Shown: in pieces, positions 3,976 to 50,364 of the stretch
How positions within the stretch are numbered: position 1 is the stretch's first letter
Layout: every line of letters begins with the position of its first letter
Sequence record: MT478991.1
Strand: one strand, 5' to 3'
DNA from: Escherichia phage vB_EcoM_011D4
DNA length: 64,000 nt
The notes under the pieces: generated by a model
The model's database searches: none
The model's input: the letters and a program-made list of their open reading frames with translations, nothing else
What the model was told of the DNA's origin: nothing
Program-made: the position numbers and the translations under genes

Positions 3976-4003
3976 TTTAATACTCCTTTGTTGTTTCGAT
4001 GGG

Positions 4004-4037
4004 GGTGTATATTACTACCCCCGTTTTGTTGTGTCAA
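4004..4037 (-). promoter_or_regulatory. early sigma70-type promoter with stem-loop (PeSL-like)
   Basis: minus strand reads TTGACA-17 nt-TAATAT; inverted repeat GGGGGT/ACCCCC spans the -10; followed by leader and AGGAG. Confidence 0.5.
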
Positions 4038-4298
4038 CTACTTTTTCAAGATTTTTTTGAGTGCATTCCAAAGACCTTTATTCTCAGGTTGTTTTGGTTC
4101 TTCGATCAGTGTCCACGGACGGTCGTCTAAGTATGCACAGCTTTTCAGAGAAATAAAAAGTTTATATCCTTGATCATCTTTGATGTAACCGTAGGTAGAC
4201 ATTCTTTCATCTGGCGTAAACTTATACAGTTTATTTGGGGTGATGTAAGATCTACTACTATAAGGTGTCATCACATACATCATGGTACTAACTCCCAT
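4038..4298 (-). CDS. hypothetical protein, tandem paralog family
   Basis: 86 aa; motif TPxKLYKFTP ... GYIxDD ... paralogous to 4280..4474. Confidence 0.45.
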   Translation of the reverse strand: MGVSTMMYVMTPYSSRSYITPNKLYKFTPDERMSTYGYIKDDQGYKLFISLKSCAYLDDRPWTLIEEPKQPENKGLWNALKKILKK

Positions 4299-9827: not shown

Positions 9828-9864
9828 TTTGATACTCCTTAGTAGTTCGTGTTTCGTTTCGATG

Positions 9865-9898
9865 GGTGTATTATGCTATACACCCTCTCTCGTGTCAA
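9865..9898 (-). promoter_or_regulatory. early sigma70-type promoter with stem-loop (PeSL-like)
   Basis: minus strand TTGACA-17-CATAAT; inverted repeat GGGTGTA/TACACCC around the -10; conserved leader CCATCGAAACGAAACAC. Confidence 0.5.
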
Positions 9899-9906
9899 CA
9901 ACTTTT

Positions 9907-10095
9907 TTAGTCTTTTTTCATAATTTCTAGAGCAGTTTCTACCGCACCTTTCCAACCTTCCCACATAATGGACATAGTGATGAAGGTAAAGCACCCGCAG
10001 GAATCAGCCTTTTTAGAAATAAACCATTCTACAAACTCTTCGCTAATACCATGCTCTTTAGCGGATTCGCGTAATTGTTCAATTTTGTCTTCCAT
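9907..10095 (-). CDS. hypothetical small protein
   Basis: 62 aa ORF in ORFan cassette array. Confidence 0.4.
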   Translation of the reverse strand: MEDKIEQLRESAKEHGISEEFVEWFISKKADSCGCFTFITMSIMWEGWKGAVETALEIMKKD

Positions 10096-10785: not shown

Positions 10786-10826
10786 AATTTGATTCTCCGT
10801 TTAAGAAAGTGTGTTTCGTTTCGATG

Positions 10827-10860
10827 GGTGTATTATGCTATAGGCCGGATCTGGTGTCAA
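10827..10860 (-). promoter_or_regulatory. early sigma70-type promoter (PeSL family, degenerate stem)
   Basis: minus strand TTGACA-17-CATAAT and the same conserved leader as the 9865 copy. Confidence 0.5.
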
Positions 10861-10884
10861 CAACTTTTTTAAAAAAATTTTAGG

Positions 10885-10912
10885 CAATAAAAAAGCCACT
10901 CCGAAGAGTGGC
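10885..10912 (-). terminator. rho-independent terminator (UUCG-type loop)
   Basis: minus strand AAGCCACTCTTCGGAGTGGCTT followed by a U-run. Confidence 0.55.
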
Positions 10913-12785: not shown

Positions 12786-12817
12786 TTTGATTCTCCTAAG
12801 TGTGTTTCGTTTCGATA

Positions 12818-12851
12818 TGTGCATTATGCTATAGTCGTTTATGGTTGTCAA
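12818..12851 (-). promoter_or_regulatory. early sigma70-type promoter (PeSL family)
   Basis: minus strand TTGACA-17-CATAAT plus conserved leader. Confidence 0.5.
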
Positions 12852-12859
12852 CACATAAA

Positions 12860-12887
12860 AACAAAAAACCCCGAAAAATTTTCGGGG
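12860..12887 (-). terminator. rho-independent terminator
   Basis: hairpin ccccgaaaaattttcgggg followed on the minus strand by a U-run. Confidence 0.5.
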
Positions 12888-14917: not shown

Positions 14918-15003
14918 TACTGATTCCTCAAATGAAAATATTTATTAACAATTGTCGCTTTGCGACGTGCCGGAGGCACTGACTATTTTTTAACCGAAAC
15001 AAA

Positions 15004-15050
15004 TTTTCTATATTCTAAAGATCTTTCTTCGTTTTGGTTATATTTTAACC
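15004..15050. repeat. 45-nt conserved intergenic repeat, copy A
   Basis: ttctaaagatctttcttcgttttggt core identical to copy B near 49.8 kb; contains a 10-nt palindrome aaagatcttt. Confidence 0.6.
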
Positions 15051-15106
15051 AATAACTATATTTTTATACAGTAATAAATAAAACGGGTACTATACGAGGA
15101 CTTCTT

Positions 15107-26647: not shown

Positions 26648-27486
26648 TGGCACGACTTTCTAAACAAGAACAAAAATTACACGACCGAGCAATGGAGTTG
26701 ATTAATTCAGATCGCCCATTGACATATGAAGAAAAAGAATTTTGCTATAATAACTATCATGGCGATGGGCTAGGTGGTTCCGGTGCATTCTTTACCCCAG
26801 AAGGGCTTGCATGGGATTTTACCATCGATGCACATTGCACAGGAAAAGTATTGGATCTTTGTGCTGGGATCGGTCGCTTATCTTTTTGTATGTTACATCG
26901 TTGTAAGCCAGAAAAGATCGTATGCGTCGAACTCAATCCAGAATTTGCGCGGATTGGCAAGCGACTATTACCGGAAGCAGAATGGATCACCAGCGATGTA
27001 TTCGAATTTGAGTCAAACGAAAAATTCGATGTTGTAATTAGCAATCCACCTTTCGGGAAAATCAATACAACCGACACAAAGGATGTATTTGAGTACACTG
27101 GCGGCGAATTTGAATTTAAGGTTATGACGCTAGGGCAAAAGTTTGCCGATGTTGGCTATTTTATTGTTCCTGTGGGTTCCGCTGGTTTTGCTTATTCCGG
27201 CAGACCTTATTATGACGGGACCATGAAGTCTAATAAATATCTAAAATGGAGCAAACAAACTGGTTTGGTGACTTATGCCGGATGTGGGATCGATACATCA
27301 ATCTATCGCGATGAATGGCACAGTACCAACGTTTTAACAGAAGTGGTTGAGGTTCGGTATTACGAGAAAGAAGCCGTAGAAGCGCCTAAATCGCGTCCTA
27401 ACGAACAAATAGAAGAAAGTAAGGAGATTACCTTACCGAAACAGGAAAGCGAGTCTGGGACGCTCTCAGATTTGTTTGACATTTAA
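26647..27486 (+). CDS. putative N6-adenine DNA methyltransferase (gamma-class amino-MTase motifs)
   Basis: 279 aa; motif X GAFFTPEGL, motif I VLDLCAGIGRL, motif IV VISNPPFGK in N-to-C order. Confidence 0.6.
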   Translation: MARLSKQEQKLHDRAMELINSDRPLTYEEKEFCYNNYHGDGLGGSGAFFTPEGLAWDFTIDAHCTGKVLDLCAGIGRLSFCMLHRCKPEKIVCVELNPEFARIGKRLLPEAEWITSDVFEFESNEKFDVVISNPPFGKINTTDTKDVFEYTGGEFEFKVMTLGQKFADVGYFIVPVGSAGFAYSGRPYYDGTMKSNKYLKWSKQTGLVTYAGCGIDTSIYRDEWHSTNVLTEVVEVRYYEKEAVEAPKSRPNEQIEESKEITLPKQESESGTLSDLFDI

Positions 27487-47682: not shown

Positions 47683-48924
47683 ATGACTCATATTTTTACT
47701 GAACTGTTGCGGGAATCTACTTCCTCAGTAGCTAACCAGACAGCGCGACCGCAACTATTATCATTAACTCGCGCGGTAAACAACCTGATTTTCTCTGATC
47801 TGGTAGCAATCCAGCCAACGGATCAACCAGTATCTGCATTGTACGGCCTACGTTATCTTAATCGTGATGGTCAGATGACTTTCCGAACTGCTACAACCTA
47901 CGGTGGCGCGGCTGGTGATCGCACAGAGATTGAAGAGTTTTCAAAAGAAAAATCTTATGACGAAGGCGCACTGTTCAAATCAGACAATGTTGTATACGAA
48001 GTTGTGACCGCTGGTACAGTCGGTGCAGATGCCGAAACTCCAGAAGCTGCAATCTTTAAAGGCGTAATGACAAACAAAATTCGTTTCTATAGCGATTGTG
48101 CATCGGTAGAATACTTTGAAGATAAAAACACCGAAATTTCGTCTACCTCTATGCAGTTTGATAAATGGCAGGTTAATGTAGGTTCTCGTAAACTGAAAAC
48201 CTCATTCACGACCGAATTAATGCAGGATCTTGAGGCAAGCCAAATCAACTCTGAAAACTCTGTAATTGATCTTCTGGCTACTGTTGCTTCCGAAGAGATC
48301 AACAAAGATATTATTCAGAAGTTGATCACTGTATCATCTCGCTATAAAATTAAAGGGATCACCCCTGATGGCGTACTTTCTCTCGTTAGCGTTCAGGATG
48401 CACCAACACAAGCGCGTGAACTTTACCGCTATGCTTGCGAAATGAGCAATCAAATGTTGCGGACTTCCTCCTTTGCTGGTACATACGTTTTGGCGTCTTC
48501 TCGCGTGGTTGGCCTCCTGCAATCTACCGGTTGGATGGAAGAAACCGACAATGCTCTAAGTGAAGGTCGTCTGCGTTGCGGTCTGGAAGTGTACGCAGAC
48601 ACGACGACACCTTTCGATTATATGCTCGTTGGTTGTAAGCACATGATCGGTGATATGGAGAGTGTAGGTTCTCTGTTCTACTCCCCATATACAGAAGCCG
48701 ACGGCGCTGGCGCGTATAAGAGCGTAATTGACCCTAATAGCTTCCAGCATCATGTAGCTATTATGAATCGTTATTCACTCTCTGTCAACCCATACACATC
48801 AAAAGTTGATCAGGAAGAACACCAGGTCATCAAGGGTGACGATTGGGGTAAAATGGCTGGACGTTCAGAAATGTCCTACATTTTAGGAATCGAACTGCCA
48901 CCGCTTGAGATTGACAACGCTTAA
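47683..48924 (+). CDS. 24: capsid vertex protein gp24
   Basis: ORF track starts at 47635; the Met of MTHIFTELLRESTSS at 47683 is the likelier start because T4 gp24 begins similarly (ELLRES) and the late promoter lies inside the longer form. Confidence 0.85.
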   Translation: MTHIFTELLRESTSSVANQTARPQLLSLTRAVNNLIFSDLVAIQPTDQPVSALYGLRYLNRDGQMTFRTATTYGGAAGDRTEIEEFSKEKSYDEGALFKSDNVVYEVVTAGTVGADAETPEAAIFKGVMTNKIRFYSDCASVEYFEDKNTEISSTSMQFDKWQVNVGSRKLKTSFTTELMQDLEASQINSENSVIDLLATVASEEINKDIIQKLITVSSRYKIKGITPDGVLSLVSVQDAPTQARELYRYACEMSNQMLRTSSFAGTYVLASSRVVGLLQSTGWMEETDNALSEGRLRCGLEVYADTTTPFDYMLVGCKHMIGDMESVGSLFYSPYTEADGAGAYKSVIDPNSFQHHVAIMNRYSLSVNPYTSKVDQEEHQVIKGDDWGKMAGRSEMSYILGIELPPLEIDNA

Positions 48925-49512
48925 CTAAATATCTAACCAAGACAAGTCAGATCCGCCCAAGATTTTTTCGACGGCGGATCTATTTTCTTGATGATATAAG
49001 TTAAAACATGGTATCCCATGTCTACGGGCAACATAAACAGCAATTCGAGTTCCTCCAGAAACAATCCCATTAACTTCTTTCGCCCAAAATAACACACAAT
49101 CTACAGGATCATCAAGTGTCTCACCTAAGACTTGAGCAACATTTCTAGAAAACAGATTTTGCATGTATAACGGTATAGAACGAGGATTATCATAAACGTG
49201 TTCTAATTCATCCATCGCCAGATTTTTTTGTTCTAAGGTTTGCCATGCAATCACATCATGACCGTTATGCTTGTGGTCATAAAACTTCCAATTTGGAATG
49301 AAAATTTTTCTATAATCTGGATCGTAATACTTCATGAAAGCATTGTCCATACCGTAAGCCCCTCCAGAATGCGCTACAACGCGATTTTCTGACAATACCC
49401 TCCCAATGGTACTAGCCATTATCAAAATGTCGCTAGGCGCTTTTCTAGAGCCGATTAAAGCACATCTACGAAGTGGTTTTACTCCAAATAGATCTTGTAA
49501 CTGGTCAAACAT
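48925..49512 (-). CDS. DprA/SLOG-like Rossmann-fold protein (putative)
   Basis: 195 aa; IGSRKAPSD ... VVAHSGGAYGMDNAF resembles the DprA/Smf GSR ... SG.A.G.D motif; GGAGG upstream. Confidence 0.45.
   Translation of the reverse strand: MFDQLQDLFGVKPLRRCALIGSRKAPSDILIMASTIGRVLSENRVVAHSGGAYGMDNAFMKYYDPDYRKIFIPNWKFYDHKHNGHDVIAWQTLEQKNLAMDELEHVYDNPRSIPLYMQNLFSRNVAQVLGETLDDPVDCVLFWAKEVNGIVSGGTRIAVYVARRHGIPCFNLYHQENRSAVEKILGGSDLSWLDI
48949..48986 (+). terminator. hairpin terminator after gene 24 (overlaps the 3' end of the convergent minus-strand gene)
   Basis: agatccgcc-15 nt loop-ggcggatct followed by a T-rich stretch. Confidence 0.4.
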
Positions 49513-49648
49513 AATATTTCCTCCATAGAAAGCAATATCATACTACAAGTTAATAACAAATACAAGTATCCGCGTAGCGGAAGCGAGCACAGCGAGCAAT
49601 AAAAACACTTCCAGTAATTGATTAATAAATGTTCGAAACAAATTTTTA

Positions 49649-49690
49649 TTATTCTATAAGATAAGTCTTCGTTTTGATCATAATTTAATC
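49649..49690. repeat. conserved intergenic repeat, copy C (degenerate)
   Basis: ttctataagataagtcttcgttttgatcataatttaatc aligns to copies A and B. Confidence 0.5.
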
Positions 49691-49792
49691 ATACATGTAA
49701 AAACTACACAAAAGGATATCGCTTCGCGAACTCCTACGGAGTATAACATTTGTGTTACAATATGTAGTGATTAATAATTAACCAAAGATACA

Positions 49793-49839
49793 TTTTCTAT
49801 GTTCTAAAGATCTTTCTTCGTTTTGGTCATAATTTAATC
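49793..49839. repeat. conserved intergenic repeat, copy B
   Basis: ttttctatgttctaaagatctttcttcgttttggtcataatttaatc; about 41 of 45 positions identical to copy A. Confidence 0.6.
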
Positions 49840-49890
49840 AAACAGTATTAATATTGTGCACATGTAAACTAAAATTATGTTAATAACAGA

Positions 49891-49920
49891 TACAAAAAAG
49901 CCGCCCAGAAGGACGGCTAA
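49891..49920 (-). terminator. rho-independent terminator
   Basis: hairpin agccg-cccagaagga-cggct with a minus-strand U-run. Confidence 0.5.
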
Positions 49921-49926
49921 TGTTAA

Positions 49927-50364
49927 TTATTTGTTGATAACGATCTGATTTCGGCGAATGGTAACATTACTCTTAGAGATGATCAGATCATCCGGCACTA
50001 CGTTAGTTTTGTATGGCTGGAAGCGAACAAGCATCTGATTGCGTTTAGACCCTTCCTTAATCTTGATTTCCATCTGGATATTGTTGCCTACGTGAGCAAC
50101 CGCAATTTCACCTTTATTCTCATAGACCCACTTGCTGGTAACGTCTCCAGCAAAAGCCTTAATAACTTGCAATGCTTCGTCATATGCGGTAGAGCTGTGA
50201 ACTTTCAGAAGACCAGCCGTAGCAAGACGGGAGCAGGTGATCGCCGGAGATTGCCAAACATCAACATTAATTTGCTCAATCAGAGTAACACCGCCCTGAT
50301 CAACTGCTTTGAATGCTTCGAACATTGCCTTTTTCATTGCTACGTGGTTTTTACGGAATTTCAT
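49927..50364 (-). CDS. hypothetical protein
   Basis: 145 aa ORF, no recognisable motif. Confidence 0.45.
   Translation of the reverse strand: MKFRKNHVAMKKAMFEAFKAVDQGGVTLIEQINVDVWQSPAITCSRLATAGLLKVHSSTAYDEALQVIKAFAGDVTSKWVYENKGEIAVAHVGNNIQMEIKIKEGSKRNQMLVRFQPYKTNVVPDDLIISKSNVTIRRNQIVINK

Follow-up and report, generated by a model that had tools for sequence, protein, structure and literature searches.

A conserved tandem pair of structured intergenic repeats between ORF165 and ORF164 of Krischvirus phages, possibly a PeSL-like boundary cassette

The stretch of DNA analysed here (64,000 nucleotides of Escherichia phage vB_EcoM_011D4, record MT478991.1; hereafter the window) comes from a Krischvirus, an RB49-like, T4-type coliphage. 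The 601 bases around the island studied here are 95-99.8% identical to 58 phage records, all of them Krischvirus (RB49, phi1, JSE, GEC-3S and relatives), with phage Whisky the closest at 99.8%. The island (49513-49926) lies between the early gene ORF165 and the DprA-like gene ORF164, near gene 24, within the accessory cluster that spans gene 24 to hoc in RB49 naming. The minus strand is the sense strand for both flanking genes, and along it one meets ORF165, a terminator, a spacer, repeat unit B, repeat unit C, a weak promoter with a ribosome-binding site, and ORF164. ORF165 (49927-50364, minus strand) encodes 145 amino acids (phrog_15652) and has its own promoter on the same strand, a near-consensus TTGACA-16-TATAAT with the -35 box at about 50466, which corresponds to the published prediction Pe:98401, the sole early promoter predicted for RB49 coordinates 73830 to 112338. 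ORF164 (48925-49512, minus strand) encodes a DprA-like/SLOG protein of 195 amino acids and is convergent with gene 24, which it abuts base to base with no terminator between the two. In Jiaodavirus and Karamvirus the DprA-like gene, again beside gene 24, directly follows RNA ligase 2 (rnlB).

At 414 bp, the island is the longest part of the window in which none of the six frames has an ORF of 50 or 60 amino acids or more, as the earlier note had it, and the next-longest gaps measure 201-278 bp. The third-longest gap (14918-15106) contains copy A of the repeat described below. The description of the island as non-coding also holds, the only internal ORF having 32 codons and a TTG start. A few submitters place a short 'hypothetical protein' in the island or give ORF164 an earlier start, which might be taken to signal a small protein gene that has been missed or frameshifted, but these annotations occur in a minority of records and differ among them. 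Single-base indels segregate at 49520, 49605, 49714 and 49900, and stops occur in all frames of the repeat at copies A and D and in a prophage homologue; no conserved coding gene was found in another frame, and we regard a hidden gene as barely credible.

Two tandem repeat copies had been reported in the island and are indeed present, C at 49658-49695 and B at 49807-49844, with a period of 149 bp and 87% identity over 38 nt, each followed by the related segment ACATGTAAA (49694-49702 and 49859-49867). A third copy of the 38-nt repeat, A, is found in the window at 15018-15055, and the 26-nt core TCTTCGTTTTGRTYATAWTTTAAYCA has three matches there against 0.00 expected from 100 shuffles. The repeat unit is much longer than this 38-nt view, with B and C being 67% identical over 149 nt and 78% over the core. 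The GC-rich, partly complementary segments that had been pointed out also exist and are local hairpins, namely, in plus-strand reading, TCCGC-GTA-GCGGA (49569-49581) in unit C, and TCGC-TTC-GCGA (49719-29) and ACTCC-TAC-GGAGT (49730-42) in unit B. They are complementary to one another since the hairpin of unit C lies inverted with respect to that of unit B.

The terminator described at the end of the island is real, but it lies on the minus strand (49918-49893) and belongs to ORF165. It reads AGCCGTCC-TTCT-GGGCGGCT followed by TTTTTTG, an 8-bp stem with six GC pairs and a T6 run, and is an intrinsic terminator by the definition used here, a GC-rich stem of at least 5 bp with a T run directly after it. 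On the plus strand, TAATGTTAATT follows the same site and no terminator score is obtained. The same structure was predicted by TransTerm as 'ORF164c<--ORF165c' at RB49 97821-97838 (Nolan et al. 2006), and it is also annotated in GEC-3S and G2248. The impression of a copy B that runs into a terminator with no intervening ORF was an artefact of reading the plus strand; on the gene-sense strand the terminator precedes the units. Within the units themselves, the hairpin of unit C at 49581-49569 is a marginal call as an intrinsic terminator, and none of those in unit B is called.

Between the terminator and unit B lies a fast-evolving spacer (49845-49892, minus strand), which holds the 17-mer TTGTATCTGTTATTAAC and the palindromic octamer TATTAATA. 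The 17-mer, which follows the ORF165 terminator, recurs as a direct repeat at 49549-49565, behind the unit C hairpin. The octamer (49846-49853) differs from the late-promoter consensus by one mismatch, at position 4, and is the only candidate in 49480-49960, where we found no T4-type late promoter of the form (T/A)ATAAATA, exact or varied at its first position, taking as the criterion a site 20-45 nt upstream of a start codon. Late promoters of most of the T4-like phages that have been studied, RB49 among them, commonly have A or T as their first base. After unit C there is a weak sigma70-like site on the minus strand, TTGTAT-17-TATGAT (49565-49537, 7.3 bits), followed on that strand by the ORF164 Shine-Dalgarno sequence GGAGG (49524-49520). 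Strong, PeSL-type promoters elsewhere in the window, that of ORF165 among them, score 12-15 bits with the sigma70 position-weight matrix, and none of this kind occurs in the island on either strand, the best plus-strand site reaching at most 6.0 bits. The same scan over both strands of all copies of the repeat found no conserved strong promoter, and no published RB49 early or late promoter prediction falls inside the island.

Alignment of copies A, B, C and D extends the homology to 105-130 nt on the minus strand and defines a unit, which we call E, with three parts. The first is an AT-rich imperfect hairpin of about 76 nt, with an outer stem TGATTAA/TTAATCA and a middle stem around ACCAAAACGAA/TTTGTTTCGGT; the second, after 0-25 nt, consists of two GC hairpins with 3-nt loops, the second of which is usually TCGC-GAA-GCGA; the third is a T-rich tract of the form TTTGT..GTTAAC behind every hairpin pair. 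Unit B (49716-49844, minus strand; covariance-model match of 133 bits, E=7.5e-25) is predicted to fold into an outer stem pairing 49834-49840 with 49768-49774, a middle stem pairing 49823-49829 with 49779-49785, a small AT hairpin and then the GC hairpins ACTCC-GTA-GGAGT (49742-49730) and TCGC-GAA-GCGA (49729-49719). Unit C (49566-49695, minus strand; 112.6 bits, E=1.5e-20) is predicted to form a long AT-rich hairpin whose outer stem pairs 49685-49691 with 49619-49625, followed on the same strand by a direct GC repeat, GCTCGCT-GT-GCTCGCT (49597-49582), and by the hairpin TCCGC-TAC-GCGGA (49581-49569), behind which comes TACTTGTATTTGTT.

The other two copies lie in late-gene regions. Copy A (14952-15055, minus strand; 97.4 bits) is found between gene 3 on the minus strand and ORF130 on the plus strand, with the late-promoter variant AATAAATA on both flanks. 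Copy D lies outside the window, between genes 35 and 36 (at 151.6 kb in Whisky). A and D are 92% identical, and their cores share 73-80% identity with those of B or C. The covariance model, trained on 22 sequences, finds exactly four matches to E in the Krischvirus genome of about 164 kb, at three intergenic sites, and BLAST finds the four places in at least 55 of the 58 Krischvirus records. Each copy is co-oriented with the gene downstream of it, and at three of the copies what follows the hairpins is a promoter of one kind or another: at D, TATAAATA 20 nt further on and then gene 36; at A, AATAAATA and then gene 3; at unit C, the weak sigma70 site and then ORF164. The late promoters at D and A lie 5-20 nt behind the hairpins. 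A 'distant' blastn search of 50,697 phages found E nowhere outside Krischvirus, a search of GTDB species genomes gave three chance matches only, and an Rfam scan of 49300-50100 returned a best score of 21 bits against a gathering score of 111. A literature search found no Krischvirus transcriptome.

Aligned to related phages, as had been suggested, both units prove to be present in all 58 Krischvirus records and in a deeper relative, L045 (IMG/VR contig UViG_3300005711_000029), whose ORF164 is 86% identical at the amino-acid level. A metagenome scan with ORF164 found two close relatives only. In L045, two tandem units again lie between ORF165 and ORF164 and carry the same two kinds of GC hairpin at their ends, and their AT-rich cores are strongly diverged and alike to each other. 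The covariance model, which had not been trained on L045, matches both units in the expected orientation (E = 2.5e-4 and 4.3e-3), and the tandem pair is therefore old and has been retained.

Analysis of folding and covariance, which had likewise been proposed, reveals stems kept through compensatory changes. The proposed stems are paired in 81.6% of alignment cells, compared with 29-52% when the partners are slid by one to three columns. At pair 17/65, copies A and D have A-U, B has G.U, C has G-C and the prophage homologue has C-G, and pair 19/63 is C-G, U.G or U-A across the copies. The latter pair can be followed within unit B alone (49826/49782), where, among 12 genomes otherwise 95-99% identical, C-G is seen in two, U.G in four, U-A in six and C.A in none. 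The stems of the GC hairpins have been wholly replaced and yet remain complementary (GTGCC/GGCAC, ACTCC/GGAGT, TCCGC/GCGGA, TCGGC/GCCGA, GCAACC/GGTTGC and GACGCTC/GAGCGTC), with the first GC hairpin having different complementary stems in A/D, B, C, L045 and the prophages. Where the A and D copies vary, the differences lie in loops of the predicted fold.

The same 12 genomes report on constraint. Variable columns make up 2-4% of the GC hairpins of the units, 7-9% of their cores and 6.4% of the units overall, compared with 4%, 0-1% and 16-21% of first, second and third codon positions of ORF164/165, respectively, and 28.6% of the spacer taken as 49845-49926. As the units vary less than third codon positions and the spacer, the units are constrained and the spacer is not, and the E family is, to judge from these patterns of substitution, under purifying selection. 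Given how tightly T4-type genomes are packed, 414 bp of conserved non-coding DNA would be costly and is probably functional. Not all of the conservation relates to pairing, as no variation is seen in the left arm, CAAAACGAAGA..ATCTT, not even in copy B, where pairing is impossible. On the minus strand, G.U pairs outnumber A.C mismatches; the fold z-scores are similar (-3.1 and -2.6), and folding energies do not separate the two strands for E.

The island had also been read as a decayed cassette. This reading finds no support, as the tandem units are kept in 58 of 58 Krischvirus and in L045, are constrained and show compensatory stem changes, and there is no trace of rnlB. A blastx comparison with Rnl2 of two related genera yielded matches at noise level only (E above 2), and the roughly 164 kb of Krischvirus genome examined contain no detectable rnlB. 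That E is not a dead or decayed gene is the best reading, and we hold it with moderate confidence; the island, non-coding as it is and with its two tandem copies of a dispersed repeat, is best labelled a dedicated regulatory or structured locus, close to the other label that had been offered, a dedicated regulatory or RNA locus.

A homologue of E was found outside the virulent phages. A degenerate pattern for the core detects it in about 24 IMG/VR prophage contigs, and BLAST detects it in a prophage of 57 of 5426 complete E. coli genomes. The prophage core shares 73-75% identity over about 80 nt with each of the phage copies (76-82% over 75-85 nt in local BLAST alignments), and, searched against a 2.3-Gb phage collection, the prophage element hits Krischvirus only, with best E-values of 3e-10 to 2e-5. 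In strain ETEC1703 it lies in a 1.4-kb stretch free of CDSs, bounded by a leftward operon whose last gene is of the Rha family and by about ten iterons, TTCAGGGGCAAAAAT, behind which are two strong rightward promoters; there is no gene nearby downstream of the element. Its two GC hairpins read GCAACC-GAA-GGTTGC and TCCC-GAA-GGGA, in one variant they read GACGCTC-CCT-GAGCGTC and GC-GAA-GC, and divergent prophage types keep the hairpins and have lost the AT-rich core. One prophage stem pair is seen in all four combinations, C.A included. An Rfam scan of the prophage region gave nothing significant. The same prophages and Krischvirus share an LprI-like gene over its 5' half, with 94-95% of nucleotides identical, which shows that DNA has recently passed between the two lineages. 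This accessory gene was the only shared gene found, and we found no trans-acting or DNA-binding protein common to phage and prophage.

The existence of this homologue keeps alive the idea that E acts as DNA, with an AT-rich palindrome that could be extruded and mini-hairpins with GNA/GAA loops serving as a replication-origin or priming signal or as a protein-binding site. The position of the prophage element beside the iterons in its CDS-free region is in line with this, as are the invariance of the left arm irrespective of pairing, the lack of clear strand asymmetry in the folds, and the inversion of hairpin loops between relatives, as template switching at quasi-palindromes would produce. 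The second hairpin of E we take to be of the GCGAAGC type, a very stable DNA mini-hairpin. The three E loci are presumably also within a few kb of genes 5, uvsY and 34, the places of oriE, oriF and oriG in T4, which is a weak argument. Set against these points, the phage copies contain no iterons, DnaA boxes or IHF consensus, in a cruciform the U.G combination that four of the 12 genomes have at 49826/49782 would count as a mismatch, origins of the T4 type depend on a promoter where the island has no strong one, and phage and prophage share no candidate DNA-binding protein. Taken together, we consider a role as DNA distinctly unlikely. A bolder version, which we also rate as improbable, would have E as a horizontally exchanged, structured non-coding module of virulent T4-type phages and temperate E. 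coli prophages, in the latter beside the iterons of a probable origin, whose CAAAACGAAGA..ATCTT arm and GAA-loop mini-hairpins would be recognised by a specific partner acting in trans. Such a module may signal priming or origin activity through its hairpins, or it may act, in conflict between phage and prophage, as a decoy or a target.

If E were instead a selfish or neutral repeat, similar to a MITE or ERIC element or left behind as a scar of cassette shuffling, and kept only by gene conversion, one might expect much of what is seen: imperfect palindromes, 105-130 nt long, at dispersed intergenic sites; A and D evolving in concert; a homologue in a prophage that is unrelated but has the same host, with recent exchange proven by the LprI-like gene; and, in related genera, rnlB occupying the slot. 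However, the units evolve about three times more slowly than synonymous sites next to a spacer that is unconstrained, and the tandem pair has been kept in every one of the 58 genomes and in L045 despite the highly recombinogenic nature of the phage. Whilst the outer stem TGATTAA/TTAATCA could pass as terminal repeats, no duplicated flank is found at A, B, C or D, there is no transposase, and no residual similarity to rnlB is left. This explanation therefore seems very unlikely to us.

The closest published relatives of E are the PeSL cassettes, which were defined in RB49/phi1 and other T4-like phages and combine a tract rich in A and T, a sigma70 promoter close to consensus, and a stem-loop by which transcription from upstream is terminated or attenuated (Arbiol et al. 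2010, PMC2839356; Comeau et al. 2014, PMC4122927). They are thought to mediate modular shuffling, with hoc named as an associated gene, and degraded forms without a -10 box have been published (PMC2839356; PMC4122927); in the original work, terminator and promoter activity were shown with lacZ reporters. E resembles them in coming from the same phage group as intergenic repeats of about 100 bp associated with accessory genes and recombination, and, for copies C, A and D, in its layout of stop or terminator, AT-rich DNA, stem-loops, promoter, Shine-Dalgarno sequence and next start. An AT-rich tract with a Shine-Dalgarno sequence and start immediately downstream is seen at C (ORF164), A (gene 3) and D (gene 36), whereas B leads into unit C. 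A stem-loop is present too, in the form of two GC hairpins per unit, but these are hairpins of 4-5 bp with 3-nt loops and not the Gn-loop-Cn of the canonical stems. The promoter is where the two part company: canonical RB49 PeSLs have a near-perfect TTGACA-N17-TATAAT, and E has no strong sigma70 promoter close to this form, being paired with late promoters at A and D. Furthermore, E contains a covarying 76-nt imperfect palindrome, has only four copies, lies in late-gene regions and has a homologue in a temperate prophage. With no such promoter, and with features that PeSLs lack, E is therefore filed as a PeSL-like variant and not as a member, a distinction drawn from the published description of PeSLs, of which the authors list 51 in RB49.

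E is a conserved family with a defined architecture and covarying stems, and it has neither coding capacity nor a strong promoter. The function of E as an attenuator or processing element, and the strand on which it would act, we infer from the layout of the genome. The reading that we tentatively prefer is that E is a PeSL-like boundary cassette between transcription units. Its hairpins would attenuate transcription leaking past the upstream terminator, and/or would give processed RNAs protected ends, with the promoter of the next gene placed at the 3' edge of E, a late one at A and D and a weak sigma70 one after C. At the island, B and C may insulate ORF165, an early gene under strong transcription, from ORF164 and the convergent capsid genes 23-24. 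As the ORF165 promoter is strong and ORF164 abuts gene 24 with no terminator, leakage would run antisense into the capsid genes; conversely, late transcripts that read through from gene 24 would be antisense to ORF165-hoc. Against both, a terminator followed by two hairpin-rich units would make a plausible buffer. The island itself is perhaps best seen, with similar reserve, as a stack of cis-acting boundary signals that contains no gene.

Support for the boundary reading comes from the placement of the units between ORF165 and ORF164, the co-orientation of the four copies with the genes that follow them, the covarying stems, the constraint on the units, the lack of a strong promoter, the late promoters behind A and D, the T-rich tract behind the hairpins, the terminator-like hairpin of unit C, the published PeSL concept, degraded forms included, and the signs of recombination given below. 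Other observations weigh against it. GC hairpins of only 4-5 bp followed by interrupted T tracts are weak as terminators, and with an efficient-looking terminator upstream of the units, and A and D placed upstream of late promoters, it may be that little sense RNA crosses E at all. The weak strand asymmetry, the C.A pair in the prophage and the lack of a nearby gene downstream of the prophage element also argue against a boundary role, and the invariance of the left arm regardless of pairing points to sequence-specific recognition, which lies outside the boundary model. The invariant left arm, the position of A and D upstream of late promoters and the role of E in prophages are left unaccounted for by that model.

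The main rival to the boundary cassette takes the plus strand as the active one and sees in E a promoter cassette that points away from the neighbouring genes, made up of two stem-loops on the upstream side, a UP-like block rich in A and T, a -35 box of the form TTGRTY and a -10 or late-like box of the form TATNNN. It would drive ORF130 at A, and at B, C and D would give short antisense or small RNAs ending at the next hairpins or at a bidirectional terminator. Copy A does have TTGGTT-17-TATATT (7.9 bits) 45 nt upstream of ORF130, both L045 units have TTGATT/TTGCTT-16-TATAAT at the homologous place, homologous boxes read TATAAA in D, TATTAA in B and TATGAA in the prophage, and the best-conserved block of E abuts the -35 box. 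No such plus-strand pair of boxes is found at unit C. A plus-strand late promoter, Pl:150021 (score 15.4), was predicted at the edge of copy D by Nolan et al., and PeSLs whose stem-loop precedes the AT-rich region have been published as a subclass. Against this, at B, C and D the -10 box lacks its final T, a critical base, and the sites score under 4-6 bits, and ORF130 has a late box of its own, AATAAATA. The DNA downstream of B, which would be transcribed, is the fastest-evolving part of the island, and the -35 positions covary with others some 45 nt distant, something not required of a promoter. On balance, we regard the plus-strand promoter as unlikely.

E may also be set beside better-known families. 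ERIC/IRU, Correia and other MITE-like elements are imperfect palindromes of 100-150 nt in transcribed intergenic DNA, which form long RNA hairpins that can alter the processing or stability of mRNA. E is likewise a dispersed imperfect palindrome, present in different replicons of one host range, but it occurs in a virulent phage in four copies and has an additional pair of GC mini-hairpins; no sequence similarity to families of the ERIC/IRU/Correia type was found, the Rfam scan being empty. The RNase III sites of T7-type phages form a family of similar hairpins with internal loops, located in the gaps between cistrons on the sense strand. E is also an intergenic hairpin family with internal loops, but its predicted stems are AU-rich, with about 20 bp and several mismatches, and it lies behind a terminator and not inside a polycistronic early mRNA. 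The T4 origins oriF (uvsY) and oriG (gene 34) combine a MotA-dependent middle promoter with an unwinding element; RB49 is said, in work from 2002 attributed to Desplats and colleagues, to have early and late promoter classes only. The likeness here lies in AT-rich non-coding or promoter-proximal DNA in late regions, and in a prophage homologue beside iterons, and the difference is that E has no strong promoter.

Several further candidates were rejected. E has no RYYYAAC/GTTRRRY cores and no integrase, as would be expected of an integron attC-like site, and its 149-nt period is far too long for a type III antitoxin of the ToxI kind. Comparison by eye with consensus sites for IHF, DnaA, FNR/CRP, LexA and TyrR and with the oriC 13-mer gave partial matches only.

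Beside the published PeSLs, E represents a second family of intergenic cassettes, one that occupies late-gene regions and has a covarying palindrome in place of a strong promoter, and it does not amount to a new kind of system unless a function is demonstrated. Together with the nearly identical accessory gene, its presence in a temperate prophage documents that virulent and temperate phages exchange non-coding modules. Units B and C and the pair 49826/49782 represent concrete targets in phages that are in therapeutic use. As a dispersed repeat whose copies are 75-92% identical, E may in addition serve as a substrate for recombination. Two observations look like signs of this: A and D of the same genome share the loop variants TCC/TAC, and in one genome copy A has a homing-endonuclease gene inserted precisely at the edge of its hairpin.

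Copy A of the structured non-coding repeat unit E (window 14952-15055), which lies between gene 3 and ORF130, was compared with copy D, which lies between genes 35 and 36 (L004 37622-37726 in Whisky, the closest relative), and with the equivalents in ECD7, RB49 and the IMG/VR UViG. The first GC hairpin has the loop TCC both in copy A of the window and in copy D of Whisky, and the loop TAC in copies A and D of the UViG, in both copies of RB49 and in copy D of ECD7. That A and D carry the same loop, be it TCC or TAC, suggests gene conversion between these copies, which lie ~87 kb apart. The 11-mer TTTTTATACAG beside the palindrome is in opposite orientation in A versus D.

In IMGVR_UViG_3300045988_033703, an ORF of 177 aa that is not found in the window (L007 2148-2681) has been inserted exactly between the copy A hairpins and the gene 3 late promoter, with its own promoter (TTGACA-17-TAGATT); read by eye, its sequence looks like that of a putative homing endonuclease of the HNH/AP2 type. 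At copy D, two published late-promoter predictions sit divergently on either side of the unit, on the minus strand at RB49 149979-150021 (L056 280-322; score 15.4) and on the plus strand at RB49 150089-150131 (L056 390-432). The minus-strand prediction has no gene to transcribe, and a transcript from it would run antisense into gene 35.

A homologue of E is also located in a prophage adjoining ghrA/tRNA-Ser in E. coli ETEC1703 (NZ_CP122923), within a 1.4-kb CDS-free region (L037 9124-10509) that is devoid of any annotation. Also present in this region are six or more GC mini-hairpins, each with a 3-nt loop, together with CTAG-rich repeats, ~10 iterons TTCAGGGGCAAAAAT (L037 9790-9990) and two strong rightward promoters (L037 10033 and 10061). 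The region probably serves to control replication or immunity. In L045, a more distant relative, ATCATCTAGTATGATCTAGTT comes after the second E unit (L045 2240-2300) and is similar to ATCTAGTATCATCTAGTT in the prophage non-coding region (L037 9580-9610), so the sharing of non-coding sequence may go beyond a single module. Krischvirus and the E-bearing prophage family also share an LprI-domain gene (252 aa, phrog_14799; L004 45897-46310, Whisky 159.9-160.3 kb, compared with L036 7763-8176 and L018 983-1369). Within the 5' half, the Krischvirus and prophage versions are 94-95% identical in nucleotide sequence, and their amino-acid sequences are 65% identical overall, which indicates a recent exchange of DNA between virulent and temperate phage. 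Two short stretches of the window match the prophage contigs: an identical 26-nt terminator-like hairpin (10887-10912) and a 56-nt segment with 86% identity (27368-27423).

In Jiaodavirus and Karamvirus (L054 991-2546; L055 1006-2555), a DprA-like/SLOG gene beside gene 24 overlaps the end of rnlB, which encodes RNA ligase 2. In Krischvirus that slot holds ORF165 together with a terminator and the tandem E units, and no rnlB homologue was found in the ~164 kb of Krischvirus examined.

The window also carries canonical PeSL-type (promoter-early stem-loop) repeats, all on the minus strand (3988-4048, 9849-9909, 10811-10871 and 12802-12862) and sited in the hyperplastic region on its left side. 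Their layout is GTTGACAC...CATAAT, with the stem GGGTGTAT/ATACACCC spanning the -10 box. A TTGACA-17-CATAAT site (48760-48788, minus strand; 12.3 bits) with the same hexamers as the family members at 9898, 10860 and 12851 lies just 3' of the ORF164 stop, inside and antisense to gene 24; this site could be an antisense promoter or could have arisen by chance.
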